Position numbers and translations under genes: made by a program | The notes under the pieces: model-generated | The model's database searches: none | The model's input: only the letters and a program-made list of their open reading frames with translations | What the model was told of the DNA's origin: nothing | Origin: Promethearchaeota archaeon | Lineage (GTDB): Archaea > Asgardarchaeota > Lokiarchaeia > Sigyniarchaeales > SOKP01 | Reading direction: 5' to 3' | Assembly (NCBI GenBank): GCA_016839765.1 | Contig: JAEOTP010000012.1 | Span: 49,892-113,891, forward strand | DNA: 64,000 nucleotides | Part shown: positions 31,000-59,589 of the stretch, in pieces | How the letters are laid out: every line of letters starts with the position of its first letter | How positions within the stretch are numbered: position 1 is the stretch's first letter

Positions 31000-31077
31000 A
31001 ATTGATTTAAATGAAAAGAAATAAGTAGATTTATTAATATTAATCAAATAAGATATTAAAAAATAGTGTTAAGAAAG

Positions 31078-31794
31078 ATGGGTATTCGAAAAATAGAAGA
31101 TGAAATTGATCTAAAAGAAGCTATGAAGAAAAAGGCAGCAGAATTAAGGTTGAAAGACATCCAAGCTAAAGCAGCTGCAGAAAAGTTTACAAAAGAAAGA
31201 TTAAGAGAACTGGCTAAAAAACATGGTGTAATATTAGCTCTAACTCCAGAATTGAAGGAGGAAGTAAAATATTTGCAAAAACTATACAAGATTCCCACTT
31301 CAAAAATTATAATAGAACAAATTACGGAACATGATGTAATTAAGAAATCGTCTAAAATTGACCATGAAAAGTTGGGTATGTTAGCTTATCAAAGAGTTCT
31401 TATGCAAAAAGAAGAAATTGGAGCGGGAGTATTACCAATCTCAGAAGTTTTTGATATTATTAACACTGGAATATTAAAGGGTAATGTTGAGATAAAAGAT
31501 CTCAAAAAAGCTTTAAGAATATTAAAGAAGTATAATGTAATTGACGATTTACAGGAGTTAGATTCCGGTACTATGATGATTAGATTCTTTCCAGTTCAAT
31601 ATACAAGTGATCAAATAAAAGTTATTGAAGTAGCTAAAGAAAATGGTTTTGTATCTCTTGAAGACGTATGTGTGAATCTAAATTGGCCTCAGGACAGAGC
31701 TTTAAAGGCCTTAAAATCACTTGAGGAAAGTGGAATAGCAAAATTTAGGGAATCCCTATTAAAAGGTAAACAATGGTATTTTCCATCGATGTAA
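31078..31794 (+). CDS. ESCRT-II Vps22/Vps36-like protein (EAP30 domain, tandem winged helices)
   Basis: The C-terminal 150 aa align by eye with SNF8/EAP30: GVLPISEVFDII..., IKDLKKALRILKK, MMIRFFPVQ, VIEVAKENGFVSLEDVCVNLNWPQDRALKALKSLEESGIA, QWYFPS. The N-terminus is a K/E/A-rich helix. Confidence 0.8.
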   Translation: MGIRKIEDEIDLKEAMKKKAAELRLKDIQAKAAAEKFTKERLRELAKKHGVILALTPELKEEVKYLQKLYKIPTSKIIIEQITEHDVIKKSSKIDHEKLGMLAYQRVLMQKEEIGAGVLPISEVFDIINTGILKGNVEIKDLKKALRILKKYNVIDDLQELDSGTMMIRFFPVQYTSDQIKVIEVAKENGFVSLEDVCVNLNWPQDRALKALKSLEESGIAKFRESLLKGKQWYFPSM

Positions 31795-31798
31795 AAAT

Positions 31799-32698
31799 TT
31801 ATTCTGCTTTAATTTTAAAAGAAATTTGCCCATCCTCAGATTTTATTATTCTTCCACGTTCATTTTTTTCAAGCATCTTGAAAATTTCAATTAAATCTTC
31901 TTTTGGAAGATTACTAAAATCCTTATTAGACTCTCTTATTTCAAATATTAAAATTGGCTCTAGGGGTGAAATCTCCATTACCCATTCATAAATTTCCTCT
32001 GCCCAGTTATCAAGCGTTTTCCAGTATATTCTCAACTTTTCTTTACTTTTGGATAACCAAAGTGCTTGATTTTTCTCAACTAGATCCTCAGCAATAATTT
32101 CTAAAGCAGTATGTCGATCTTCAAACTTAGAAAAAGGTTTTTCTGATTGTAATTTTCTTAAATATAAGATATGAAGTATAGCATATCTTGCATAATCAAA
32201 AATAACTTTTGACCATTCACTTTTCCATGATTCAAAATCTGTATGATTGGTCTTTTTATTGGGAATTGAAAACATGAATACATATCTTTTTTCTTCAAGC
32301 CATGGATGATCATTTAGTAATAATTCATAGGTGGATACTTCTTTAGCAACAACACCCTTTTCGCCAACTATCTCTTGTTCTATTGCTTCAAGTTCTTTTT
32401 CTATTTGTTCAGAATGTTGTTTGTATGCTTTTGAATCTACATCTCCCAGTTTACTTGTTAAAAAATCCTCAATTCTATCCAAGCGGGTTTCAATATCTTC
32501 AGTTATGGCTTTTTCAGAAGTCTCGTTTTGTGCTCCCTCTTCTTTAATTATTTCATTTTCCTCAACTTCTTGAAGTTTTTTTTGTCTTTTTAGTTCTTTT
32601 AATCTTGCTAATTCTTTCCTTAAATCATCTAATTCTTTTCCTGCTTTCTCTTCAGGTTCTTTAGGGATTTCTTTTGATTTTTCTCCTTGCCGTTCCAT
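31799..32698 (-). CDS. ESCRT-II Vps25-like protein with ~130-aa N-terminal E/K-rich coiled-coil extension
   Basis: The C-terminal half resembles Vps25: WSKVIFDYARY..., ALWLSKSKEKLRIYWKTLDNWAEEIYEWV, FSNLPKEDLIEIFKMLEKNERGRII..DGQISFKI. Confidence 0.75.
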   Translation of the reverse strand: MERQGEKSKEIPKEPEEKAGKELDDLRKELARLKELKRQKKLQEVEENEIIKEEGAQNETSEKAITEDIETRLDRIEDFLTSKLGDVDSKAYKQHSEQIEKELEAIEQEIVGEKGVVAKEVSTYELLLNDHPWLEEKRYVFMFSIPNKKTNHTDFESWKSEWSKVIFDYARYAILHILYLRKLQSEKPFSKFEDRHTALEIIAEDLVEKNQALWLSKSKEKLRIYWKTLDNWAEEIYEWVMEISPLEPILIFEIRESNKDFSNLPKEDLIEIFKMLEKNERGRIIKSEDGQISFKIKAE

Positions 32699-32721
32699 TT
32701 TTTATGCAACCAACTTTTTTA

Positions 32722-33912
32722 TTAAAATTCTCCGAATTCTTCAGCCCAATCTTGATATCTTTTTAATACAGACCCAGTGGTCATTGGTTTTATTTTTTTA
32801 ATCGTTTTTAGAAAATCTTTTAAATTTATATCCCTTACAATGACTTCTTTATCTGGATCTTCCAACAATCCTCCCATATCTAATTCTCGAACAGGAATCA
32901 TTATTACCTCTCGACATACATTAGAAATGTCTCGACCTGAATAACCATCAGAACGAACAGCCAATTCAATAAAATCTTCATCCTTTAATGCAGAATTAAC
33001 ACCTGCGGTATGAATCTTAAAAATTCCTGCTCTAGCTGGTTGATCTGGAAGGGGAACATATACCTTTTTTTCGAATCTACTTAACATTGCGATATCAATA
33101 TCCCAAGGTCGATTTGTAGCTCCGAGTACAAGTAATGGTTTGTCATGAGTTGATTTTACTCCTTGGATTTCTTGTAATAACTGGGTTTTTACTCTTCTCT
33201 CTCCCCCTCCTTCATGACCACTTCCTCTCGTTGTGGTTACAGAATCAATTTCATCCATGAAAATTAAGCTTGGTGCTTTCAGTCGAGCTACTTTGAACAA
33301 AGATGATATTAACTTCTCACTCTCACCTAACCACTTACTTAATAAATCTGCTGATGAAACACTGAAAAAAGTGGCTTTACATTCAGTCGCTGCTGCCTTA
33401 GCTAGCAAAGTCTTTCCACATCCAGGAGGCCCAAATAGCAATATCCCTGACCATGGTTTCCTAGCACCAGTAAATAATTGTGGTTTCATAATTGGTAACA
33501 CTATAGCTTCTCTTACAGCTTGCTTACAATCTTTTAAGCCTGCAATATCTTTCCATTTAACATTTGGTGATTCTGTTAAAATCGTGCCTGAAATGGAATC
33601 CATAAGTTCTTGTTCTTCTGAAGACACAGCACCTTCCTCCCCTCCTTCTCCTTTTGGCTCACTTGGACTTACTGCTGGAGATGATCTTCGTGCTCGTGGA
33701 CCACTTAAATGAGCTTTAAGAGCTTGGGCACGAGTAACATACTGTTCAATTTGATCTTGGCATTTTCTTATCATCATGGGATTTTTATTATATTTGACAA
33801 ATTGAATAAGTATTTCAGCTGCCCGTTGATATTTGTTTATAGCTTGTCTATATCTACCTGCTTCATCTAATTTTACAGCGGCATTTGCTTCTTCAACAGC
33901 ATATTGATACAA
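32722..33912 (-). CDS. vps4: Vps4 (MIT domain + AAA+ ATPase), ESCRT-III disassembly ATPase
   Basis: It has an MIT-like N-terminus (AVEEANAAVKLDEAGRYRQAINKYQRAAEIL) and Walker A (GILLFGPPGCGKT). It also has SKWLGESEKL, Walker B (LIFMDEIDS), VLGATNRPWDID, SRFEKKVYVPLP and a C-terminal WAEEFG helix. These closely match eukaryotic VPS4 blocks. The apparent start is TTG. Confidence 0.92.
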   Translation of the reverse strand: MYQYAVEEANAAVKLDEAGRYRQAINKYQRAAEILIQFVKYNKNPMMIRKCQDQIEQYVTRAQALKAHLSGPRARRSSPAVSPSEPKGEGGEEGAVSSEEQELMDSISGTILTESPNVKWKDIAGLKDCKQAVREAIVLPIMKPQLFTGARKPWSGILLFGPPGCGKTLLAKAAATECKATFFSVSSADLLSKWLGESEKLISSLFKVARLKAPSLIFMDEIDSVTTTRGSGHEGGGERRVKTQLLQEIQGVKSTHDKPLLVLGATNRPWDIDIAMLSRFEKKVYVPLPDQPARAGIFKIHTAGVNSALKDEDFIELAVRSDGYSGRDISNVCREVIMIPVRELDMGGLLEDPDKEVIVRDINLKDFLKTIKKIKPMTTGSVLKRYQDWAEEFGEF

Positions 33913-34204
33913 TTTGGAGTCTACTGATGAGATAATAATAACCTCTTATTTTTAGCTTATTTTATTGTATAATATTTCAATTGTTATTTAAATTAATCTA
34001 ATACTAATCTTTCCTTATAATTAATATTAAATAAAAGGTATTTCAAATTTTCTTTTTAATCATATAGATTCTAAATAATTCTTATTTTATTTGTAGTTTC
34101 TTCTCAAACATTTGACGTAATTATTGGTCTACAAAAAATTATATAATCTCGAATTTTTTTATATATTATAAAACAACTAAAAATCAAAATGAGATTGAAT
34201 CAAA

Positions 34205-34834
34205 ATGGGTTTTCTTAAAGATCTATCAGGCTGGTTGTCTGGAGGCCGTAAAAAGGATACAGTTCGTTCTGCAACAATTAGATTGAAAGTTTTCAATAAA
34301 CGATTAATGAGACAGACTAAAAAAATGGAAATAACTGCCAAACAAGCAAGAGATAAAGCTGTAAATCTTCGAAAGGCAGGTGATATGGAAGGATCTACAT
34401 TTCACGCTCGTAATTATCTCCAAGTTAAAAAACAAGCAAGGGCAATAGATTTATTCAGGACAAACCTTGAAGGCATGGTATTTAAATTAGAACAAGCAAC
34501 AGCAGTTAAAGATGTTGCTGATATTATGCATGGAATTGCACAAAGCTTGGGAGCATTAAAGAATCAATTGTCTATTCCACAAATCACAGAACTAATGACC
34601 CAAATTGGAGTAGATATAGAGGATTTTAGTGTAACTGAGGAAATCACCACTGATGGTATAAATGAGGTTATGCTAGACACAGCAGTTACTGATAATGATG
34701 TTAAGGAAGTATTAGGCGAAATAGATGCCGAAATAGGTGCTGAAATTGGTGGAGCACTTCCATCTGTGGCAGAACCTGATGGAAAAGTTAAAGAATTAGA
34801 AGATGAGTTACGAAAATTGAAATCAAAAGATTAA
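34205..34834 (+). CDS. ESCRT-III subunit, Snf7 family, Vps2/24/46 (CHMP1-3)-like
   Basis: It has a basic N-terminal helical hairpin and an acidic C-terminal half. LKNQLSIPQITELMTQI parallels CHMP2 NRQLKLPQIQKIMMEF. The C-terminus has a MIM-like helix (KELEDELRKLKSK). Confidence 0.85.
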   Translation: MGFLKDLSGWLSGGRKKDTVRSATIRLKVFNKRLMRQTKKMEITAKQARDKAVNLRKAGDMEGSTFHARNYLQVKKQARAIDLFRTNLEGMVFKLEQATAVKDVADIMHGIAQSLGALKNQLSIPQITELMTQIGVDIEDFSVTEEITTDGINEVMLDTAVTDNDVKEVLGEIDAEIGAEIGGALPSVAEPDGKVKELEDELRKLKSKD

Positions 34835-36060: not shown

Positions 36061-36576
36061 TTAATTAAAAGTTTGGACAAATAATGAACAAGGTCTAACT
36101 GAATCAGCAGTACTACTTCCCTTATATACTAATGTAACAGTATGACTTCCTGAAGTCATGGTTGTGTTATAATGCTGTAATGATACAGACATTCGTAAAC
36201 CATGAGCAGAAGCAATATTATATCTTTGTACATAAATTCGAGGTTGAGGCCACATAAGGCCATCTATTTCAAAATGAACTTCAACATAACTAGTAGGATT
36301 CGAGCTATCATCAAAATTTATTTCAGCTATAAATAAAAAATAAACATCTTGTCCCGAACTAACATCAAAATCTATGGATATACTGGAAATAGTTCCCCAA
36401 GCTTCGCTTGCTTGCATGTAAAACACAGTCGTAGAAAAATCATACCATTGATTTTCTGCTGGTGATGTAGGAGGACTTGCAATATAATTGTCATATAAAA
36501 TGAAACCTGTTGCTCCAAGACTAACGATTAGAGCAATCACCGCAATAATACTACTACCTCTTCCCATCTTTTCCAT
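36061..36576 (-). CDS. N-terminally membrane-anchored beta-rich hypothetical protein (cargo of repeat-flanked segment)
   Basis: The N-terminus (MEKMGRGSSIIAVIALIVSLGATGFIL) is followed by a Ser/Thr-rich, strand-like sequence. I recognise no family. Confidence 0.4.
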   Translation of the reverse strand: MEKMGRGSSIIAVIALIVSLGATGFILYDNYIASPPTSPAENQWYDFSTTVFYMQASEAWGTISSISIDFDVSSGQDVYFLFIAEINFDDSSNPTSYVEVHFEIDGLMWPQPRIYVQRYNIASAHGLRMSVSLQHYNTTMTSGSHTVTLVYKGSSTADSVRPCSLFVQTFN

Positions 36577-36848: not shown

Positions 36849-37373
36849 ATGGATGTTTACAAGTTTAAGATCGTGATTATTGGCGATGGTGGTGTTGGAA
36901 AAACAACATTAACACATCGGTATCTCACGGGTGTCTTTAAAGAAACTTACAAATTGACTCTTGGAATGGATTTCTATTTAAAAAAGCTAGAAATGAATGG
37001 AAAACAGATAAAACTTCACATTTGGGATTTTGCTGGAGAAGAAAAGTTTAGATTTTTATTACCTAGTGCTGTTCTTGCCGCACAGGGGACAATTTTTATG
37101 TATGATATTACAAGGTATAATACATTTAAGAATTTAACTGACTGGTTATCTGTTTTTGATGAAGCAAATAAAACTCATAATCAGGAAGTATCTACGATTT
37201 TAGTAGCAAGTAAATTAGATCTTGAGGAAAATCGAGCAGTTTCTGAGAATGAGGGCAAAATTTTTGCAGAAGAATATAAATTCTCAGAATATATAGAAAG
37301 TTCTTCAAAAACAGGGGAAAATGTTGACTATATATTTGAAAAAATCACGAGAATAATACTTAAAAAGATATAA
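36849..37373 (+). CDS. Rab/Ras-like small GTPase with non-canonical G3 and G4 motifs
   Basis: G1 is GDGGVGKT, switch I is YKLTLGMDF, G3 is WDFAGEE, G4 is ASKLD and G5 is SSK. It is 174 aa with no C-terminal Cys. Confidence 0.85.
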   Translation: MDVYKFKIVIIGDGGVGKTTLTHRYLTGVFKETYKLTLGMDFYLKKLEMNGKQIKLHIWDFAGEEKFRFLLPSAVLAAQGTIFMYDITRYNTFKNLTDWLSVFDEANKTHNQEVSTILVASKLDLEENRAVSENEGKIFAEEYKFSEYIESSSKTGENVDYIFEKITRIILKKI

Positions 37374-37489: not shown

Positions 37490-38353
37490 ATGAATATAAC
37501 TAAATATAAAAGAGCTTTAATTTACTTTGCGATATATTGTATATTTTGGATTGCTATTTCTATTGCACTATCTTTGCTAACAGGTAAAGGAGACGACTTA
37601 ACAAAATTTATTCCAATTTCTGATATGGGAATTGAAACAGCCCTAATTGCTATAGTGTTATTGCCATTATCTTCAATAATAGGGTTATTTATTGGTGGTT
37701 ATGGGTTTTCACCTCTTTTTCTCTACTTCCATAAAAGAATTTTTAGATCAAAAGCGGAGTATGGTATTTACAATAGGCCAGAATTTGAAAAATTTAAATT
37801 CTTTTCTTCAGGTTTGTTTTCAGCATTAATGGCTATTAACTTTTCACTATTCTTACTTAATCCGAGTATCGTGAGCCTTTCAATAGGCTCCATTCCTGAC
37901 AGTCAAGATGATTATGCTAAAACTTTTGTAGTACTATTAGTATTTACATTTATTATTGCAACAATACTCTTCTCAACTACGTGGTTTATAAAAGATTCTG
38001 GTATCCTATATTCAAATAAAAATCACCTTAAAAAAACTAACAATCCTCCCGAAATACGTTCTATTGGCAGATGGTATGGACAATTTTTAAAAGGATATGC
38101 TGGTGTGTCTGTAATATTTTCATACTTTGAATTTATTACAATTTTTCTAGTAGAAACTGCAGGTATAGGAAATTTATTCCCTATTTTGCTGGCAATCTTC
38201 ATTCCATTCCCATTTTTCATGATAATCCCATATATTCCAACTTTAATAATCTCAGATGTAATTGAACAACATAGAAATAATTATATTCGAAAGTATGCAA
38301 GAAAATTAGGCATTACCAAACCAGTTGAAATAACATTTGAATTGGGAGTATAA
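37490..38353 (+). CDS. Polytopic membrane protein, hypothetical
   Basis: It has about 7 hydrophobic helices. I recognise no family. Confidence 0.4.
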   Translation: MNITKYKRALIYFAIYCIFWIAISIALSLLTGKGDDLTKFIPISDMGIETALIAIVLLPLSSIIGLFIGGYGFSPLFLYFHKRIFRSKAEYGIYNRPEFEKFKFFSSGLFSALMAINFSLFLLNPSIVSLSIGSIPDSQDDYAKTFVVLLVFTFIIATILFSTTWFIKDSGILYSNKNHLKKTNNPPEIRSIGRWYGQFLKGYAGVSVIFSYFEFITIFLVETAGIGNLFPILLAIFIPFPFFMIIPYIPTLIISDVIEQHRNNYIRKYARKLGITKPVEITFELGV

Positions 38354-38699: not shown

Positions 38700-39542
38700 T
38701 TATAAAGTACTAAGAAAATTTGAAATATCTGAGGATCTAGGGACTTCAACTTCAAAATAGTATTCAACAATTTCATACAAATAATCTAAATAAGGAATGG
38801 ATATTTTAACATCATGTTTTTTTTTCAATTCACTTATCATCTTTTTTGAATAGATTTTTTCATTCTTCTTTAGGTTATTAATAACATCTATTATGGTTTT
38901 AGATAATTCGAAAGCTTTTTGTATTTCATTTTTTAGGATAATTAAACTAGTTAACGGATCATATTCACTTAGAAATTTCTGAATTATTGTCTTTTCTACA
39001 TTTAATTTGGTGGATTGAATTTTACTATTAAAATCATTAATTACTTCCCGACCTTTAAATGCAAAATGCTCATCAAATGCCTTACTATTATAATCCTCTT
39101 CAGTAATCATACTAAGATCAATATTAAATGTGTTTTGTGTTAAATAATCAATAAAGTTTGAAATTTGGCTAAACATGTATGTTTGATCAGAAATTATAAC
39201 TATTTTCTTATTATAGATCATTGCCCTCAATACATAGCCTAGTAATGAAGCTGTTAAATTTAGTTTAATTAAATCGATTTCAAATAAATCCGATAAATCT
39301 TTCTCAACTTCAGTTATTTCTTCAGAAATAGCATTTGGGAGTTCGACTTGAAAATCGGCTTTAAATGTATCTCTTACAACAAAATTTTTATCAACGTAAG
39401 CAACAAAAGAATGTTCACAAACAATACCTTCTTCGATGTTAACTGTAAATAGACCTCGCGAAGCTTTTTTAACTTCATCATCAGAAACTTCGATAAAATT
39501 ATTTTTTGAGCAAGTGGGGCAACGAACTTGAAGTTTAGCCAT
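38700..39542 (-). CDS. Hypothetical protein with N-terminal zinc-ribbon-like motif
   Basis: CPTCSKNNF...x25...CEHSF is followed by a mixed alpha/beta region (LLGYVLRAMIYNKKIVIISDQ) and a helical C-terminal half. Confidence 0.45.
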   Translation of the reverse strand: MAKLQVRCPTCSKNNFIEVSDDEVKKASRGLFTVNIEEGIVCEHSFVAYVDKNFVVRDTFKADFQVELPNAISEEITEVEKDLSDLFEIDLIKLNLTASLLGYVLRAMIYNKKIVIISDQTYMFSQISNFIDYLTQNTFNIDLSMITEEDYNSKAFDEHFAFKGREVINDFNSKIQSTKLNVEKTIIQKFLSEYDPLTSLIILKNEIQKAFELSKTIIDVINNLKKNEKIYSKKMISELKKKHDVKISIPYLDYLYEIVEYYFEVEVPRSSDISNFLSTL

Positions 39543-39679
39543 ATTTGGAATCGATTATCTAATTAATTTTTATACTATCTAGATTATGAATATTGATTTA
39601 TATAAATCTTAACTATTTTGATGTGAATTTAATAGGAGATTTTAGAGTATAAACGAAGGCTATTATGGTTTTAAAAAAA

Positions 39680-40159
39680 TTAATATCTTTTTATCTTTCC
39701 GTATCTTTTCTCAATGAGATTTGCTAACAGCAAACATATTAACGCGGAAAAGTTTTCTGCCACTAAAAATGATAACGTATTATCTAAATAAATAATGCCA
39801 ATATAATAAGAAATAAAGAAGAAGATTGTAAAAAAAATAAACATAATAAGTAAGGGTTTTACAATAGGAAAATTTAAAATTCTCTTAAGAATGGGTAAAT
39901 CGCCTCTTGATTTCTGAAATTGTGTTTTTAACTTTTGTTTTCGTTCTATTTGCGCATATGCCTCAAAAATTATTGTTGTTCCAAAATATAAAGCAACAGT
40001 AGCTCCAATCGGAATTAATATAACAACATAAAAACTTCCAACACTTAATAAATATTGTGCAATGAAAATGAATAAAATTTGAAAAAACCCACAGGCTCCA
40101 AAAATCATAAAAGCAAATGGGATATATTCTTTCGTTCTCCAGCGTACTCTTATTGGCAT
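39680..40159 (-). CDS. Four-TM membrane protein, hypothetical
   Basis: ORF with hydrophobic helices. I recognise no family. Confidence 0.35.
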   Translation of the reverse strand: MPIRVRWRTKEYIPFAFMIFGACGFFQILFIFIAQYLLSVGSFYVVILIPIGATVALYFGTTIIFEAYAQIERKQKLKTQFQKSRGDLPILKRILNFPIVKPLLIMFIFFTIFFFISYYIGIIYLDNTLSFLVAENFSALICLLLANLIEKRYGKIKRY

Positions 40160-40195
40160 TTTTTAGCAATCTTTTCTTAATTTTTTTTAATATAA

Positions 40196-40286
40196 TGGGC
40201 CCGGCGCGATTTGAACGCGCGACCTTCCGCACGTCAAGCGGACGTCACTGCAGGCTTTCAAGCTTTCCGAGCTAGACCACGGGCCC
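40196..40286 (-). tRNA. tRNA-Val (anticodon GAC) carrying a ~17-nt insertion (putative non-canonical intron) in the D-loop
   Basis: The minus strand reads GGGCCCG TG GTCT [26-nt loop AGCTCGGAAAGCTTGAAAGCCTGCAG] TGAC G TCCGC TTGACGT GCGGA AGGTC GCGCG TTCAAAT CGCGC CGGGCCC A. All arms pair, but the D-loop is about 17 nt too long. Confidence 0.8.
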
Positions 40287-40470
40287 AATGAATTATCTAT
40301 CAATTCGATATTATAATTATCGAAATTAATGATATGTAATTTATATTATTAAAAAATAAATATTTTATGAGTCTTTTTTTTTATTTTTAAGAAGGAGCTA
40401 TCACTAAAGTATTAATCTCTAGATTTATGATTTTTGAATTATAAAATCAAAAAAAAATAAGATTTATGAT

Positions 40471-41082
40471 TTAAATTATATTAGCTATGTTTAAAAGATT
40501 GAGGGTAAAATAGCTCAAAAAAATAGCAGCAAAAATAATCATGAAAACTTTTTTTATTAAAATTGTGTTAACAAGAATTAATATTGCTGCTACAAGGAAA
40601 AGGATACCTATTATCCATTGAATTATCAAATACATTACAGGAGGAAATCCAAAAAAAATAATAAATATGCTAAAAGTAAGAGAAGAGGCCCATGCTATAG
40701 TCAATAGAATTCCTGCTGATAAACTTAAACTACCCTTATGTTCTTTATTTTTACTCCCAAATTTAATAAATGCAATTCCAAGAATTATATTCACACTATA
40801 GTTAATAATCATTATTGTTAAATAATAAGATAATCCAATAAAATAATCCGGAAACGTGTATGAAAACATTACAGAGGGTAAAAATTGAGAAATTATGCTC
40901 CAACTCAAGACAATAATCCCAACAGTGCTTAAGAATTTCACTGATTCAAAATTTCTCTCATCTTTTTTTAACTCTGAACATCCTATAATTAAAAAGATAT
41001 AGGCTGCTACGGGTAGAATAAAATAGAGCCATCCCCAAACAGAATATATCCAATCCCAGTAAAAATAAAAACTTATTGCCAT
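40471..41082 (-). CDS. Six-TM membrane protein, hypothetical
   Basis: ORF with regularly spaced hydrophobic helices. I recognise no family. Confidence 0.4.
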   Translation of the reverse strand: MAISFYFYWDWIYSVWGWLYFILPVAAYIFLIIGCSELKKDERNFESVKFLSTVGIIVLSWSIISQFLPSVMFSYTFPDYFIGLSYYLTIMIINYSVNIILGIAFIKFGSKNKEHKGSLSLSAGILLTIAWASSLTFSIFIIFFGFPPVMYLIIQWIIGILFLVAAILILVNTILIKKVFMIIFAAIFLSYFTLNLLNIANII

Positions 41083-50206: not shown

Positions 50207-50941
50207 ATGAGTGAACTCCAAACTATCAAATGTTATTTAAATCAATTACCAGCCACATTAATAAAAATATTGGGTATTGACCCTCCTTTCGATACTATTC
50301 CAGAACCAGTTGATTCCATTACTGAGTTATATCAGGGTATTGAAAGAATCGTTATAATTCTTATAGACAATTTCGGCTTGTTTGAGCTCACATTTCATAA
50401 ACCCGAATTCATGATAAGGCAATCACAAATGATGTTATTGTTATCTACTAAGAATCCCTATACATTAGGAGTTTTACATCAAATTCTCTATGGTGGATTC
50501 GAAAAAGAACCAAATGGATTTCATCTATTGCGATTTCTTAATAATAATGGAAAAAAATCATGTTTCATTGGAAGGAAAAAGGATTTAGCCAGATATGACG
50601 GTGGTACATATTCGGTTGCTAAAGATACTGACATGGCAACGTGGATTGAAAGCGCTAAGACAATCAATAATTATGATTTTTCATGGATGCATTATTTAGA
50701 TTTCGAAAATTTACATAAACAGCAACAAGCTTTAAAGCAAAGAACACCTGAAGATTTAATCGAAAAATTAATTTTACGTACGGATAAATGGATTTTAGGA
50801 AATTATAAACAATTAAGACCTAATTCTTTAATGATAATTTTAGGAGATCATGGTCGGGTAAAGTTAGATTTAGAATATTCTGGCAAAATTGCTCAATGGC
50901 GTGAGGCCTCGGTACCTGTTGCTATTTTGATCGCTAAATAG
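50207..50941 (+). CDS. Alkaline-phosphatase-superfamily protein (type I phosphodiesterase/nucleotide pyrophosphatase-like)
   Basis: The blocks VIILIDNFG, STKNPYTLG..ILYGG, HYLDFENLH and IILGDHG fit the metal-ligand layout of the superfamily. Confidence 0.45.
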   Translation: MSELQTIKCYLNQLPATLIKILGIDPPFDTIPEPVDSITELYQGIERIVIILIDNFGLFELTFHKPEFMIRQSQMMLLLSTKNPYTLGVLHQILYGGFEKEPNGFHLLRFLNNNGKKSCFIGRKKDLARYDGGTYSVAKDTDMATWIESAKTINNYDFSWMHYLDFENLHKQQQALKQRTPEDLIEKLILRTDKWILGNYKQLRPNSLMIILGDHGRVKLDLEYSGKIAQWREASVPVAILIAK

Positions 50942-54504: not shown

Positions 54505-55311
54505 ATGACAATACCGGAGAACTCATTACTTTCAAAAATTAAAAGATCTTCAGAAATATTAAGCATCCATAATTTGCTAATCTTTAACAGGTCAGGAATC
54601 TGTATTTACGGAATAAGTTTTACAGATTTATTTAGATTAGAACAAGAGCAATTAATATCTTCCTACTTTACAGCCCTCATGTCCTTTACAAATGAATTGA
54701 TAGGAGATAAAATAAAAACGTTAGAAATGGGAGGAGGTGTAAAACTTACTATTTTTGAAAAAAGTAACCTAATTTACGGTCTCTTATGCGATACAGATGA
54801 AAATTTAATTATGCTTGAAAATATAATTTCAAAATTACATATAAAATTTATCAGGTACGTTAAAAAAAACCACGTAAAAACAGACTTGGAATACATATAT
54901 GATGATGATTTGGATTATCTTGTAAAAGAAATTATAAAAGAAATGTCTACTAAAGAATATGATTTAGAAAAAGAAGAGAAAGTAATAAAATATTTAAAAA
55001 GCATTAAAGCAAATGATCAACTTAATGATATAATCTTTTTAACAGATGGGGGCAAGATTCTCTATTCATCTGCGAGGAATAAAACTTCGCTAAGAAAAAT
55101 ATTAAAGGAAGTAGATTTCAGAATTAAAATTTGCAATAACTCAATTTTAAAATTGTTTTATACTTCTAAGGACAATGAACTTATCTTTTCTGAATACTTT
55201 AATGAAAAATATTTAATAATATTAGTCTTCGATTCAAAGACTAAATTTGGTGTAGCTGAGTTTTACTTACATAAAATTGTAAGGAAGATTACAGAATTTT
55301 TAAAGGAATAA
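54505..55311 (+). CDS. Two-domain protein: longin-like N-domain + roadblock/LC7-like C-domain (hypothetical)
   Basis: N-domain strand/helix pattern: LLIFNRSGICIYGISF / QLISSYFTALMSFTNEL / IKTLEMGG-VKLTIFEK-LIYGLLCD / ENLIMLENIISKLHIKFIRY. C-domain pattern: helix, IIFLTDGGKILYSS, helix, two strands, terminal helix. Confidence 0.45.
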   Translation: MTIPENSLLSKIKRSSEILSIHNLLIFNRSGICIYGISFTDLFRLEQEQLISSYFTALMSFTNELIGDKIKTLEMGGGVKLTIFEKSNLIYGLLCDTDENLIMLENIISKLHIKFIRYVKKNHVKTDLEYIYDDDLDYLVKEIIKEMSTKEYDLEKEEKVIKYLKSIKANDQLNDIIFLTDGGKILYSSARNKTSLRKILKEVDFRIKICNNSILKLFYTSKDNELIFSEYFNEKYLIILVFDSKTKFGVAEFYLHKIVRKITEFLKE

Positions 55312-55459
55312 GTTATTTTTTATTTCTTTTTAAGCCTAATCACCATTAATTTTTAAGTTTTTAATTAATTTCCAAAAATTTATGAATTATAAAAATGAAC
55401 TTAAAATTATATTTCCTCTAAACTTAAAATAATATTAAAATAGGATATTAAGAAAGAAT

Positions 55460-55963
55460 ATGACAAAATCAGAAGAAGGCTTAAAAGAAGCTTTTGCTGG
55501 AGAATCTCAAGCTAATAGGAAGTATCTAGCTTTTGCTAAAAAAGCAGAACAGGATGGATTTCCTGGAGTGGCACTACTGTTTAGAGCCGCGGCAGCTGCC
55601 GAAACTGTTCATGCTTATAATCATCTAAGAGCTTTGGGAGGGATTAACTCTACTATTGAAAATTTAAAAGAAGCGATTGGTGGAGAATTTTATGAGTTCA
55701 CAAAAATGTATCCAGAATTTATTGAAGATGCTAAGAGTGAAGGGATAAAAAATGCTGAGAGAACCTTTTCCTATGCTAATGAAGTAGAAAAAATACACCA
55801 TAAATTATATGAGAAAGCATTGAAATTAATTGAAGAGGGAAAAGATTTAGACGTTAAAGAGATGTATATATGTTCAGTATGTGGTTATACACACGAAGGA
55901 ACTCCTCCTGATAAGTGTCCCGTTTGTGGCGCTGCCAAAAAAGCTTTTGAAAAAATTGAATAA
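55460..55963 (+). CDS. rbr: Rubrerythrin
   Basis: It has a ferritin-like diiron domain (FAGESQANRKY, AETVHAYNH, EFYEF, EKIHHKLY) and a C-terminal rubredoxin motif (CSVCGY...CPVCGA). Confidence 0.9.
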   Translation: MTKSEEGLKEAFAGESQANRKYLAFAKKAEQDGFPGVALLFRAAAAAETVHAYNHLRALGGINSTIENLKEAIGGEFYEFTKMYPEFIEDAKSEGIKNAERTFSYANEVEKIHHKLYEKALKLIEEGKDLDVKEMYICSVCGYTHEGTPPDKCPVCGAAKKAFEKIE

Positions 55964-55977
55964 TTTTTTTATTTTTT

Positions 55978-57564
55978 TTAAATCTTCCAGGGTTTATAGC
56001 CTGAATGAACCTTTATTAGATAATTATCTATAGAAATACCTAGCTCCTTTTCTGCTCTTCTTAAGGCTCCAAAATTTCCTCCATGTAAGTAATATTTAAT
56101 TAATAGTCCAGATATGGTCTGATCTCCTAAAGAAAAGATTGTTTGCATTCTTGCGTTCTTAACAATTTCTTTTGGGTTTTGAAATTTTAGTTTAACCGCT
56201 GGTATTTTTTTTAATGCTTTTTCTAATATTTGGAACTTAGATATTAAGAGTTTCAGATTGCTACTTAAATAAAAATTAATTTTGTTTTCATAGGGTGTAT
56301 TAAATTTGGGTACAAATGGGTTGATATTAACTTTTAGTGAATTAGTCTCAAAACCAATATCAGAGATCTGAGTTAATAGATTAATGATTTGCTCTATATC
56401 TTCGTCTCTCTCATCAGGTAATCCAATTAAAAAATAGAATTTTACATTTCTGATTTTTGAGTCTTTGATCTGTTCCAAAACTTCCATAATCTTCTCATTT
56501 GAAATTCTTTTCCCTAAGGAATATCGTAAAGTTTCAGTACCTGCTTCAGGTGCTATAGTTATTGATTTGATATTAGCTCTTTCAAGGACTTTAATTATTT
56601 TTGGAGTCAAATGATCTATTCTAATTGAGGGAATACTTAGTTTTTTACCTTGATTCACAATATAATCACAAATTTCATAAAATTTAGGATGAGATGATAC
56701 ACAAGAGCCAATTAGAGATATTTTTTCAAATTGCGTTTTTATAATTGCTTCTTCAATTGTCTTTCGAATGTTTTCATAACTTCTATTTCGAAAAGGAGAA
56801 TTATGAAATGAAGATATGCAGAATTTACATTGAAATGGACATCCTCTATTGATTTCAATAAAAAAGTTTTCTTCAAAAATTTTTTTAGTAGTTATTGCCT
56901 TGGAAATTAATTGAAAAATAGGAATAGGAGACTTGTCGATATTTTCTAGTATTGCTCTTTTTGTTTCATTTTTTAAACTTGGAATATAGATCCCATTTAT
57001 CAACTTTGATTGTTGAAGGAGCTCTTGAAAATTAATTTTACCCGTTTTAAACTTCAAAAATGTAGCTAAAAAAAGATTAAGATTTGGTTCACAATCCCCA
57101 ATGAAAAATAGATCGAAAATATCATTAAGAAGTAATGGATTTGAGGTAATCACATGACCACCCCCTATAATTAGTGGATATTTGAATCCTTCTTTCAAAT
57201 TTGTTTCCCTACGTTTTTGTGAATAAAGAGGGATACCTGATTTTTCTATAATCCATAGAATATTTCTAAAATCATTTTCATAGTGAATAGAAAATCCTAA
57301 TATATCAAAATCGATAGGAGATATTTTATTTTCAATACTCCTTACACTATCATCAGAAGTATGGTTTACTAAGGCAGGAAACCGTATCCTTCTGGGAAGA
57401 AATATTCTTTCACATACATAGTTTTCATTAGAATTAATAAGATAATAAAGTAGCCTTATAGTATATGAAGAGATCCCCAATTCATAATAATTTGGATATA
57501 CTAAACCAAAAGATAAGTCAATTTTTCTCCAGTCTTTTTTAATTACACTAATTTCATTCATCAA
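55978..57564 (-). CDS. B12-binding-domain radical SAM protein
   Basis: It has a CxxxCxxC cluster (NRGCPFQCKFC) after an N-terminal Rossmann-like B12-binding-type domain. Confidence 0.7.
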   Translation of the reverse strand: MMNEISVIKKDWRKIDLSFGLVYPNYYELGISSYTIRLLYYLINSNENYVCERIFLPRRIRFPALVNHTSDDSVRSIENKISPIDFDILGFSIHYENDFRNILWIIEKSGIPLYSQKRRETNLKEGFKYPLIIGGGHVITSNPLLLNDIFDLFFIGDCEPNLNLFLATFLKFKTGKINFQELLQQSKLINGIYIPSLKNETKRAILENIDKSPIPIFQLISKAITTKKIFEENFFIEINRGCPFQCKFCISSFHNSPFRNRSYENIRKTIEEAIIKTQFEKISLIGSCVSSHPKFYEICDYIVNQGKKLSIPSIRIDHLTPKIIKVLERANIKSITIAPEAGTETLRYSLGKRISNEKIMEVLEQIKDSKIRNVKFYFLIGLPDERDEDIEQIINLLTQISDIGFETNSLKVNINPFVPKFNTPYENKINFYLSSNLKLLISKFQILEKALKKIPAVKLKFQNPKEIVKNARMQTIFSLGDQTISGLLIKYYLHGGNFGALRRAEKELGISIDNYLIKVHSGYKPWKI

Positions 57565-57596
57565 AAAATTCCAAAATCTCTAAAAAATATAAAAAT

Positions 57597-58397
57597 TTAA
57601 TTATTACCATCCTGTTCTTGTTGCATATTCTTAATTTTTTCAACAATTAAAGGTAAAACTATTCCCGTCTTATGACGAATTACAACTTCAGCACGTTTAT
57701 CTAAATGTGTTGGTTGATCGTTAACTATAATTAATTTGCCACCATCTCTTAAAGTGTATAAAGGTAAATCACATATAGGTGCTACTTCTAATGATGATCC
57801 TGCAATTAACATTATATCCGCTTTCTGTGCCAATGCTCGTGATTGATATATTTCAAAAGTCGGCAAACCTTCTCCAAATAATACAACTGAGGGTTTTAAA
57901 GGTGCTGAACAAAAATCACATAACGGACCCCCTTTTTTTTCCTTTTTCAACTTTCGCATAATCTGGTCTTTTGTATAAGAAGATTTACATCCTAAGCAAT
58001 TAAATCGATTTATGTTTCCATGGACCTCATATACTATAATTGAGCCTGCTTTTTGGTGAAGCTCATCAACATTTTGAGTAATAACTGCTTTAAGAATATC
58101 CATTTTTTCTAATTCTGCTAGAGCATAATGACCCGGGTTTGGTTTTGCTTTAAAAAGGTTTGGGGCAATTTCTTGAGCTAGTTCCCAGAATTTTGCTGGA
58201 TTCTTTAAAAATGCTTGGATGTTACCATAAATTTCAGGTTTATATTTTTCCCAAATGCCGCCATCTCCACGGAAATCTGGAATTCCAGATTCTGTTGAAA
58301 CTCCTGCTCCAGTTAATACGATTGCCTCTTTTGAATTATATAATAATTCAGCAGCTCTTCGAATTTTTGTCTTTTCTTCTAATTTAACAATCTTCAT
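57597..58397 (-). CDS. cobB: NAD-dependent protein deacylase, Sir2 family
   Basis: It has GAGVSTESGIPDFRG, TQNVDELH, a catalytic H in EVHGN, and zinc ribbon cysteines (CLGC...CDFC). Confidence 0.9.
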   Translation of the reverse strand: MKIVKLEEKTKIRRAAELLYNSKEAIVLTGAGVSTESGIPDFRGDGGIWEKYKPEIYGNIQAFLKNPAKFWELAQEIAPNLFKAKPNPGHYALAELEKMDILKAVITQNVDELHQKAGSIIVYEVHGNINRFNCLGCKSSYTKDQIMRKLKKEKKGGPLCDFCSAPLKPSVVLFGEGLPTFEIYQSRALAQKADIMLIAGSSLEVAPICDLPLYTLRDGGKLIIVNDQPTHLDKRAEVVIRHKTGIVLPLIVEKIKNMQQEQDGNN

Positions 58398-58701
58398 TAC
58401 CTAAATCAGCCACTTCATCAGATTAATTACTATTTATTCTGCAGACTTTTGTTTCTATTAAGAAATCTCCTTAGATCATCTCTAAATGGATGAATTATTT
58501 TATATTTATATTATGAATTATTAAAATTTATTTATTATAAGATATTTTAAAAATTTTCAGAAAAAACTACTTAAATATTTAAAATTTAATCTTGAGATCA
58601 TTTGTTATCTCAATATCATAAAAAATTAAAATTTTGAATAATTTTAAATTTATGTAGATATACGATCATAATTGAAAAACTATTACTTCAAGATTTTACT
58701 C

Positions 58702-59589
58702 ATGATAACTGGTTTTGCTATTATTTTAGATGACGAAATTCTCTACATTTCAAATGAAAATAAATTTCTGATGTTTGAAATAGTATTATTTATAGAAAAA
58801 TTAATTCGTAGTATAAATCCTAATAATGGTTGGCGTTTGAAAAATATCTTTTTTGAAGGTAAATCTGGCAGAGAAAGTATGATAATCAGGCATGTTGTTA
58901 CTGAAGATCTTCAAAATCTTTATTATTGTATAACAGGTGATTTTCTATCAAATTCTGAAGAAGCAGATAACCTGTTAAAAGAATTTTATGAAAAGGTTAA
59001 TGCAAATTATGATGACTTAAATAAATTTGGGGAATATTCAAAAAAATCTGAATTTTCTAAGGTTATTAGATTAATTACTGGATATTTGTGGGATAAATAT
59101 CATTACCCACTAGAAGATGAGGAAATTAAATATACGTATGCCCAAATAGAGAATAAAATTATTTATTGTGGAATTTCTGCCCAAGGATTACCAATTATCT
59201 CTCAATTGTATGATACATCACTATTAAATGACCTTAAGCGAGAGATTACTAATGAAAATATCGAAATATTTAGTTCAAATTTATCAGCAAGATTAGCTAC
59301 AATAGCAATGAATACTCAAATCCGAGCACAGATGAGTATCAAAGAAATTCAGTTTGATGATTTATTAGAGAATACAAGTAAAAAATTGATATTATTTGGA
59401 GATCTCAATGGTTATTCTCTTGATTTTGTGGCATCGGGTGATTTTAATAGAATTAAAGAGATATTTAAGCAACTAGTAGAAAGAGTTTCACAAGAAGAGA
59501 TATTAAAGCAAGAGTTTTCGGGGGATTTAAAACCATATCGTTCATTGAAAACTTACTTAAATGAAATTATCCAAGAATTTGATCAATAA
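58702..59589 (+). CDS. Paralogous two-domain longin-like + roadblock-like protein (hypothetical)
   Basis: It has the same secondary-structure rhythm as 54505..55311: GFAIILDDEILYISN / FLMFEIVLFIEKLIRS / LKNIFFEG-SMIIRHVV-LYYCITGD / EEADNLLKEFYEKV. A second domain has IIYCGISAQGLPIISQ ... KLILFGDLNGYSLDFVASGD ... IKEIFKQLVERV. The ATG at 58702 is preferred over the TTG at 58672. Confidence 0.4.
   Translation: MITGFAIILDDEILYISNENKFLMFEIVLFIEKLIRSINPNNGWRLKNIFFEGKSGRESMIIRHVVTEDLQNLYYCITGDFLSNSEEADNLLKEFYEKVNANYDDLNKFGEYSKKSEFSKVIRLITGYLWDKYHYPLEDEEIKYTYAQIENKIIYCGISAQGLPIISQLYDTSLLNDLKREITNENIEIFSSNLSARLATIAMNTQIRAQMSIKEIQFDDLLENTSKKLILFGDLNGYSLDFVASGDFNRIKEIFKQLVERVSQEEILKQEFSGDLKPYRSLKTYLNEIIQEFDQ

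Follow-up and report, generated by a model that had tools for sequence, protein, structure and literature searches.

A two-domain gene family of Asgard archaea

The window analyzed here, i.e. the whole stretch of 64,000 nucleotides from contig JAEOTP010000012.1 of an Asgard archaeon, is AT-rich (GC content ~27-35%) and contains an open reading frame (ORF) of 268 amino acids (aa) predicted to encode a longin domain followed by a roadblock-type domain. We refer to this gene and its product as the target. The ORF stands as it was drawn in the first-pass annotation of this DNA, with the same start, strand and length (Table 1). From a collection of 5.8 billion proteins, we retrieved 269 homologs that are nearly the same in length, almost all 265-285 aa, every one from an Asgard metagenome-assembled genome (MAG) or metagenome and annotated only as 'hypothetical protein'. 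In a species scan with one genome per GTDB species, 86 relatives were found and 80 were kept, with identities from 94% down to 36%; the locus counts given below rest on these 80 loci. The nearest relatives of the target in the window belong to Promethearchaeia (Lokiarchaeia-type) MAGs, and conservation of the N-terminus begins at Met1. Because of the 269 homologs and the spread of relatives across species at 94-36% identity, we conclude that the target is a real, vertically conserved Asgard gene, present in at least 80 species-level genomes.

When 1.84 billion representatives were searched exhaustively with a profile (E ≤ 1e-3), 259 proteins matched and revealed an outer shell of the family, formed by full-length relatives of 250-270 aa with just 18-29% identity to the target. 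The window itself holds no further family member detectable with full-length or domain-split hidden Markov models. Most of the NCBI record titles read 'Promethearchaeota archaeon'. One contig with the full Asgard gene block described below (L035, DATKTW010000149.1) is titled 'Candidatus Nanopelagicaceae bacterium' and is probably mis-binned. One study assigns its MAGs, among them L008, L074, L075 and other JBHL* records, to classes (Odin, Hod, Hermod, Thor) that disagree with the 47-93% identities of their genes to a Promethearchaeia gene.

Predicted fold of the target

We predicted the structure of the target with AlphaFold2 (AF2) from a 61-sequence alignment (A1). The model has a mean predicted local distance difference test score (pLDDT) of 74.8 and a predicted TM-score (pTM) of 0.54. 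Ahead of the first domain lies an extension with a conserved SKIKR-type motif, where I12 and K13 are ≥90% conserved in the core family; the extension is missing from the distant relatives of 250-260 aa, which begin at about query position 20. In the N-terminal domain, the strands at residues 21-27, 33-38, 70-75, 79-86 and 89-96 and the helices at 53-64 and 101-122 give the ββαβββα order with a five-stranded antiparallel sheet that characterizes the longin superfamily, in agreement with the Foldseek matches and with the rhythm read from the sequence in the first-pass annotation. Residues G31, Y35, L50, A57 and F61 of this domain are conserved family-wide. The helix of the acidic linker sits where the αX helix does in the tri-longin domain (TLD) subunits compared below, and no βX strand is predicted in the linker of the AF2 model.

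The C-terminal domain comprises helices at 154-166, 193-211 and 248-267 and strands at 173-180, 185-188, 217-222, 225-232 and 236-243, which is the αββαβββ(α) order of the Roadblock/LC7/MglB fold with its helix before the first strand. This N-terminal helix is included in the profile alignments to 9jue_D and MglB. A roadblock-like topology had been anticipated for this domain and is borne out by the model, in which the central helix is followed by three strands in place of the two that had been counted. Conserved residues are G183, Y187, S188, E202, R206 and G249. The stretch EVDFRIKICNNSILKLFYTS is the most conserved part of the roadblock domain in the core family, and conservation also covers two residues of the central helix's C-terminal half, E202 and R206, together with the strand that follows. 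Conservation is highest, in both domains, at the loop between β1 and β2 and in the central helix, which are the parts described as the dimerization region of roadblock proteins (Tran et al. 2024, PMC10933270).

Table 1. The target gene, its domains and other genes, with coordinates in the window and, where counted, the number of the 80 loci with the gene near the target
Feature	Coordinates	Strand	Basis and remarks	Loci
Target gene, longin-roadblock two-domain protein	54505..55311	+	ORF, ATG start, 268 aa plus stop	
N-terminal extension, aa 1-20	54505..54564	+	Predicted disordered; pLDDT < 50 for residues 1-18	
Longin domain, aa 21-122, ββαβββα	54565..54870	+	AF2 topology, profile matches, conservation	
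Acidic inter-domain linker, aa 123-153, helix 134-149	54871..54963	+	AF2, charge (net -6)	
Roadblock-type domain, aa 154-268, αββαβββα, net charge +6	54964..55308	+	AF2, profile matches, conservation	
Rubrerythrin	55460..55963	+	Pfam 3e-22; typically ~150 bp after target	73/80
Radical S-adenosylmethionine (SAM) enzyme, B12-type, Radical_SAM_N2 N-terminal domain	55978..57564	-	Pfam	73/80
SIR2-family deacylase, divergent from the 295-aa gene	57597..58397	-	Pfam 1.8e-49	67/80
Candidate partner, 295 aa, two predicted longin-type domains	58702..59589	+	AF2, Foldseek, synteny, rate covariation	60/80
NTP-transferase (flank)				40/80
GH2 (flank)				23/80
Ras-like GTPase near target				0/80
Rab-like small GTPase, client proposed in the first-pass annotation	36849..37373	+	Pfam Ras 2.1e-47	
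EAP30/Vps36-like gene (ESCRT cluster)	31066..31794	+		
ESCRT-II subunit	31799..32698	-		
Vps4	32722..33912	-	MIT, AAA, Vps4_C domains	
Snf7/ESCRT-III	34205..34834	+		

Structural and sequence relatives of the target

Comparison of the target model with the PDB by Foldseek gave 66 matches at E ≤ 1e-3. The six best are all Mon1 chains (8jbe_C, 8c7g_C, 9lol_B, 7qla_A, 9rs7_A and 9l0d_A; E 2.2e-7 to 7e-6), whose identity was verified by sequence. They are followed by chains of Fuzzy-Inturned/CPLANE and BLOC-3, then by single longins (AP sigma, zeta-COP, Sec22b, VAMP7, Trs23) and roadblock proteins (MglB, LAMTOR/MP1, Thor and MK-D1 Roadblock), which match the C-terminal domain with template-normalized TM-scores (TMt) of 0.6-0.7.

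At the sequence level, single-sequence searches with the target (NCBIfam, and phmmer against the PDB) found nothing significant, the narrow profile A1 had no match in the PDB, and the target alone retrieved from Pfam only AP-5 sigma (E 0.031, aa 88-114), below threshold. Across 61 core members, Pfam matches were to Sybindin (41/61), Fuz_longin_1 (21/61) and MAPKK1_Int (8/61). Fuz_longin_1 reached the best E-value of any family in the core members (2e-6) and was the top family in seven of ten distant full-length relatives, with best scores of 24.5-24.8 bits against a gathering cutoff of 26.1. The first longin of FUZ/MON1/HPS1 is the best longin family for the N-terminal domain, yet always sub-threshold. 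Only the broadened profile A3, which includes the distant relatives, reached MON1 and Roadblock by sequence. Its positions 4-122 found the first longin domain (LD1) of MON1 as the best longin match in the PDB (E 9.7e-4 and 1.1e-3), next to Trs23 (3.7e-3), and its positions 137-251 found the Roadblock/LC7 domain protein 9jue_D (E 1.8e-4; the entry is titled MK-D1 Roadblock3 in the Foldseek output) and MglB (0.012-0.02). The resemblance to AP sigma subunits that had been pointed out earlier holds at the superfamily level only: besides the AP-5 sigma match and the AP sigma chains in the Foldseek list, Clat_adaptor_s appears in one distant relative (E 0.005) and AP-2 sigma is reached by A3 at E 0.25. 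Three independent lines, namely the AF2 topology, the Foldseek matches and the profile matches to MON1 LD1 and to Roadblock/MglB, support the fold, and we hold the longin plus roadblock assignment with high confidence.

In the TLD subunits Mon1 and Ccz1, a linker that contains αX and βX joins LD1, a canonical longin, to LD2, which is of the roadblock type (αββαβββα), and LD3 is of the lamtor type (Klink et al. 2022, PMC8833172). The αX-βX element in the LD1-LD2 linker is a defining feature of TLD proteins, in which αX normally completes LD3 (PMC8833172). The target has the architecture LD1 + linker helix + LD2 of the Mon1/Fuzzy/HPS1 class, without LD3. The first-pass annotation could name no described family of this architecture, which needs correction, as longin followed by roadblock is the LD1-LD2 arrangement of the TLD subunits of Rab guanine nucleotide exchange factors (GEFs) (PMC8833172). 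The likeness to Mon1-Ccz1, Fuzzy-Inturned/CPLANE and HPS1-HPS4/BLOC-3 is apparent in domain types and order, which match LD1-αX-LD2, in the best structural matches (Mon1) and best longin sequence matches (MON1 LD1, Fuz_longin_1), and in a second gene of similar fold near the target, an echo of the obligate TLD heterodimer. In contrast to TLD subunits, whose ordered core exceeds 400 aa, the target has two domains in 268 aa, with LD3 absent, no predicted βX strand and marginal sequence similarity; all 269 homologs measure ~250-285 aa, and its host is an archaeon without a known endomembrane Rab7 system. We keep the target out of the TLD family because the three-domain organization is lacking and no βX is predicted.

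Other members of the superfamily share parts of this organization. The Roadblock/LC7/MglB proteins (MglB, LAMTOR2/3 and Asgard Roadblock proteins, e.g. PDB 9jue and 7f8m) have the αββαβββα topology of the target C-terminal domain, but they are single-domain dimers of ~120-160 aa, whereas the roadblock of the target is fused behind a longin. Single-domain longins (the TRAPP sybindins Trs23/Bet5, AP/COPI sigma and zeta, Sec22b/VAMP7 and SRX) share the fold of the N-terminal domain, and Trs23 aligns with the target-family consensus at the β1-loop-β2 'SG..IY' motif. The Sybindin, AP sigma and Longin Pfam matches to the family are sub-threshold; these proteins have no fused roadblock, and the target has no SNARE or adaptor context. 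Fusions of longin and roadblock modules are common in Asgard archaea (PMC10933270), and the GTPase-longin, GTPase-roadblock and Lokiarchaeota Roadblock-Longin (PDB 8yqg) fusions have superfamily and phylum in common with the target. The order in the target, longin then roadblock, is the reverse of that in 8yqg, and no GTPase domain is fused to it.

The 295-aa gene and the conserved gene block

The ORF listing starts the candidate partner gene at TTG 58672 (58672..59589); since its homologs measure 294-297 aa, the start is most likely the ATG at 58702. The AF2 model of the 295-aa protein is confident (pLDDT 87.6, pTM 0.86) and has two longin-type domains, ββαβββααα at aa 2-138 and ββ(α)αβββαα at aa 152-294, and the protein is acidic, with a net charge of -14. 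Foldseek places TLD chains first for this model (CPLANE 7q3e_B, E 6.4e-4, then 9rs9_B and 8zwc_A), the best chains including those of Fuzzy-Inturned and BLOC-3. Tandem PAS/LOV proteins are interleaved in the list, with probabilities of 0.1-0.3 versus 0.91-0.94 for CPLANE/Fuzzy-Inturned.

The first-pass annotation took this gene for a paralog of the target. Its location and the two-domain fold in common with the target (AF2) are confirmed; paralogy is undemonstrated by sequence, as BLASTP between the two proteins gives no match and hhalign probabilities are only 1-7%. More precisely, the comparison of A1 with the profile of the 295-aa family (A2) has a probability of 1%, and that of A3 with A2 is collinear across both domains over 121 columns (probability 7%, E 0.005). 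A Pfam scan of 49 members of the 295-aa family yielded noise and DUF6018 (E 1e-3) only, and the family profile found nothing relevant in the PDB.

The gene order is fixed in related contigs: target (+), rubrerythrin (+), radical SAM enzyme (-), SIR2 (-) and 295-aa protein (+). These five genes are kept together better than the flanks, down to 36% target identity (Table 1). The block of unrelated-looking genes on mixed strands spans 54505..59589 in the window and stays together in loci L005-L084. In 62 loci the contig extends ≥4.4 kb past the target, and 59 of these carry the 295-aa gene, always on the target's strand and at a median distance of 3.37 kb.

We compared evolutionary rates within the block by a mirror-tree test, for which the window and 55 loci supplied 56 genomes. 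The distance-matrix correlation between the target and the 295-aa gene (r = 0.919) is the highest of the ten gene pairs. With the other three genes regressed out, the partial Mantel r of this pair is 0.63, a value reached by 0 of 2000 permutations, and the next partial covariation is that of the target with the radical SAM gene (0.44). Mean distances are 0.66 for the target and 0.59 for the 295-aa gene, versus 0.30-0.32 for rubrerythrin and SIR2. The rate covariation supports co-evolution of the target and the 295-aa gene, without amounting to proof.

Small GTPases in the window and around the target family

The Rab-like GTPase at 36849..37373, proposed earlier as a client, lies 17 kb from the target. 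We found no link between the two, and in none of the 80 genomes does the GTPase occur close to the target. Among the checks suggested with that proposal, AF2 and Foldseek returned the longin/roadblock topology, and the neighborhood of the target held no GTPase gene (0/80 genomes). On either side of the GTPase lie ORFs of 171 and 287 aa, neither of which is related to the target family.

The substrates of TLD GEFs have a switch-I Tyr-Lys/Arg motif in common (PMC12383261). Switch I of the GTPase in the window reads FKETYKLTLGMDF, i.e. a Rab7/Rab23-like YK motif. In its 120 closest homologs the dipeptide is YH (33), YQ (30), YK (22), YA (19), WK (10) or FR (2), so that K or R occupies the position in just 34/120, and we rejected YK as a family-level signature. 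The GTPase has a G3 motif WDFAGEE and a G4 motif SKLD rather than NKxD. It carries no prenylation motif, because a C-terminal cysteine is absent; one of the 120 homologs has one.

Two distant relatives of the target have distinct neighborhoods. P0298 (255 aa; L086, 6740..8768) is the last gene of a tight same-strand cluster with a Robl_LC7 gene (121 aa) and genes for proteins of 153 and 127 aa, which could be a multi-roadblock, Ragulator-like operon, and has no 295-aa-type neighbor. P0261 (256 aa; L085, 7431..10198) is preceded by an unannotated 170-aa gene and followed, 30 bp downstream on the same strand, by a Ser/Thr protein kinase-TPR gene.

Proposed mechanism and alternatives

From homology, we infer a GTPase-regulator role for the target. 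That it dimerizes, with which partner, that it binds a GTPase and in which direction it would regulate it are likewise inferences. The target is a soluble two-domain protein, with a canonical longin, a helical linker and a roadblock-type domain, and, by analogy with every characterized longin or roadblock protein, would most likely dimerize by edge-to-edge β-sheet pairing of equivalent domains. The dimer would form a flat platform binding a Ras-superfamily GTPase on its paired longin domains, and could control the nucleotide state of this GTPase (GEF-like if it acts as Mon1-Ccz1 does) or its localization. The most likely partner would be the 295-aa di-longin protein encoded ~3.4 kb downstream, giving a Mon1-Ccz1-like heterodimer of four domains rather than the six of Mon1-Ccz1, in which the basic roadblock domain (+6) may contact the acidic partner (-14) or a membrane. 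Judged by analogy, a GTPase-platform function of the target seems slightly favored. The scheme that we prefer, a dimeric GTPase-regulating platform that is possibly a heterodimer with the 295-aa protein, has about an even chance of being right, and the specific pairing of the target with the 295-aa protein is put forward tentatively, at somewhat below even.

Several observations weigh against this scheme. The target model is of moderate confidence, and its full-length superpositions on TLD subunits are poor (query-normalized TM-score, TMq, ~0.3; root-mean-square deviation 15-16 Å). Because of these superpositions and the modest pTM, the likeness to TLD subunits resides in domain types and order, not in inter-domain geometry. 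All matches to eukaryotic families are marginal, below the Pfam gathering thresholds and at E ~1e-3 in the PDB. To our knowledge, the PDB holds essentially no tandem longin/roadblock proteins other than TLD subunits, which might therefore come out on top for any protein of this tandem kind. This bias is partly answered by a list headed by Mon1 chains rather than by those of Ccz1, which are just as tandem, and the Mon1 class is also indicated by two independent tests at the sequence level.

Further points concern the GTPase and the partner. No small-GTPase gene occurs within ±10 kb of the target in the 80 genomes, nor does a GTPase gene lie beside the distant relatives, which have the Robl_LC7 cluster and the kinase instead. 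In Asgard archaea, genes for small GTPases do not generally share an operon with those for longin or roadblock proteins (Tran et al. 2024, PMC10933270); for this reason, the missing linkage is weak evidence against a GTPase role and gives it no positive support. At the level of sequence, nothing ties the 295-aa protein to a longin family or to the target. The rate covariation may be inflated because the target and the 295-aa gene both evolve fast, and synteny of neighboring genes is general in this clade. The two genes are not co-transcribed, since three genes lie between them, two on the opposite strand.

The alternative that survives best is that the Mon1 resemblance is generic, the target being an independent Asgard fusion of longin and roadblock with no specific Mon1/Fuzzy/HPS1 ancestry; we regard this as a real prospect, if clearly below even. 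Such modules abound in the phylum, with 130 Asgard clusters of orthologous genes (asCOGs) of the Roadblock/LC7 superfamily (bioRxiv 10.1101/2020.10.19.343400) and 41 longin and 38 roadblock domains in Lokiarchaeum (PMC4917890). TLD subunits could rank first merely as the only tandem-domain templates, more core members match Sybindin than Fuz_longin_1 with all Pfam scores sub-threshold, and no eukaryote-length TLD protein is found among the best 150 of the 259 profile matches. LD3 is absent as well, and βX, which helps to define TLDs, is not predicted. However, a generic origin sits less well with Fuz_longin_1 giving the best E-value of any family in the core members and leading in most of the distant relatives, with MON1 LD1 as the best longin profile match in the PDB, and with a Foldseek list headed by Mon1 specifically.

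A second alternative retains the platform and dispenses with the partner: the target would act as a homodimer or otherwise partner-independently, as an MglB- or Ragulator-like GTPase-activating protein (GAP) or scaffold, and the 295-aa gene would be a syntenic bystander. Asgard roadblock and longin proteins do form homodimers (PMC10933270), the closest sequence relatives of the C-terminal domain are the homodimeric roadblocks MK-D1 Roadblock3 and MglB, P0298 clusters with a Robl_LC7 gene and lacks a 295-aa-type neighbor, and the target is not co-transcribed with the 295-aa gene. A bystander, however, fits poorly with the retention of the 295-aa gene beside the target in 59/62 genomes, with the strongest partial rate covariation being that of this pair, and with the two-domain fold that the proteins have in common. 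We consider this alternative unlikely.

The conserved mixed-strand block, with its better retention than the flanks, the covariation of the target with the radical SAM gene as the second strongest partial value, the tandem PAS/LOV sensors in the 295-aa Foldseek list and the lack of a GTPase linked to the target could also suit a role apart from GTPases, in which the target would be an α/β sandwich of the PAS/GAF-like class that serves as a regulatory or sensor module, acting with rubrerythrin, the B12-type radical SAM enzyme and SIR2. Such a role is very unlikely, because every significant target match is a longin or roadblock GTPase-platform protein, the PAS/LOV matches have far lower probabilities than CPLANE and Fuzzy-Inturned, and Asgard small-GTPase genes generally lie outside longin/roadblock operons anyway (PMC10933270).

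Relation to eukaryotic Rab activation

In eukaryotes, TLD Rab GEFs acting on Rab7 control what defines late endosomes and lysosomes, and others do so for lysosome-related organelles (through Rab32/38) and for cilia (through Rab23). The accessible literature treats them as eukaryote-specific, and we found in it no link of TLD Rab GEFs to Asgard archaea and no description of the target family or the 295-aa family, subscription-only literature being outside the search. Asgard longin and roadblock proteins are already well known as a class, and a link between FLCN/NPRL2-like longins and GAP complexes of eukaryotes has been drawn (PMC12290439). To this class we add a longin-roadblock protein that resembles TLD subunits but has two domains, and for which a di-longin protein is the candidate partner.

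The target may be an archaeal precursor of Mon1/Fuzzy-type Rab-activator machinery. In a stronger form of this proposal, which we think distinctly improbable, the heterodimer of the 268-aa and 295-aa di-longin proteins would be what survives in archaea of the ancestor from which tri-longin Rab GEFs descend, activating an Asgard Rab-like GTPase via paired LD1 domains, with LD3 added on the eukaryotic stem. Were this ancestral heterodimer real, a Rab7-type activation module would have arisen before eukaryogenesis; if the resemblance is generic, the target is one more of many Asgard longin/roadblock fusions and of modest interest. Either way, the pair (268 and 295 aa) offers a small and concrete system for asking if longin-based Rab activation predates eukaryotes, and could reveal the makeup of a minimal GEF core of the TLD-like kind.

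Other genes of the window

The conserved-length ORFs at 36061..36576, 37490..38353, 38700..41082 and 50207..50941 have no Pfam match at E ≤ 0.01; one of them lies upstream of the target and the others around the Rab-like GTPase, and they include the 287-aa ORF directly downstream of the Rab-like GTPase, already noted as unrelated to the target family. The region 31066..34834 is a canonical Asgard cluster of ESCRT genes (Table 1), and the Rab-like GTPase gene lies 2 kb downstream of it, after a PfkB kinase gene.

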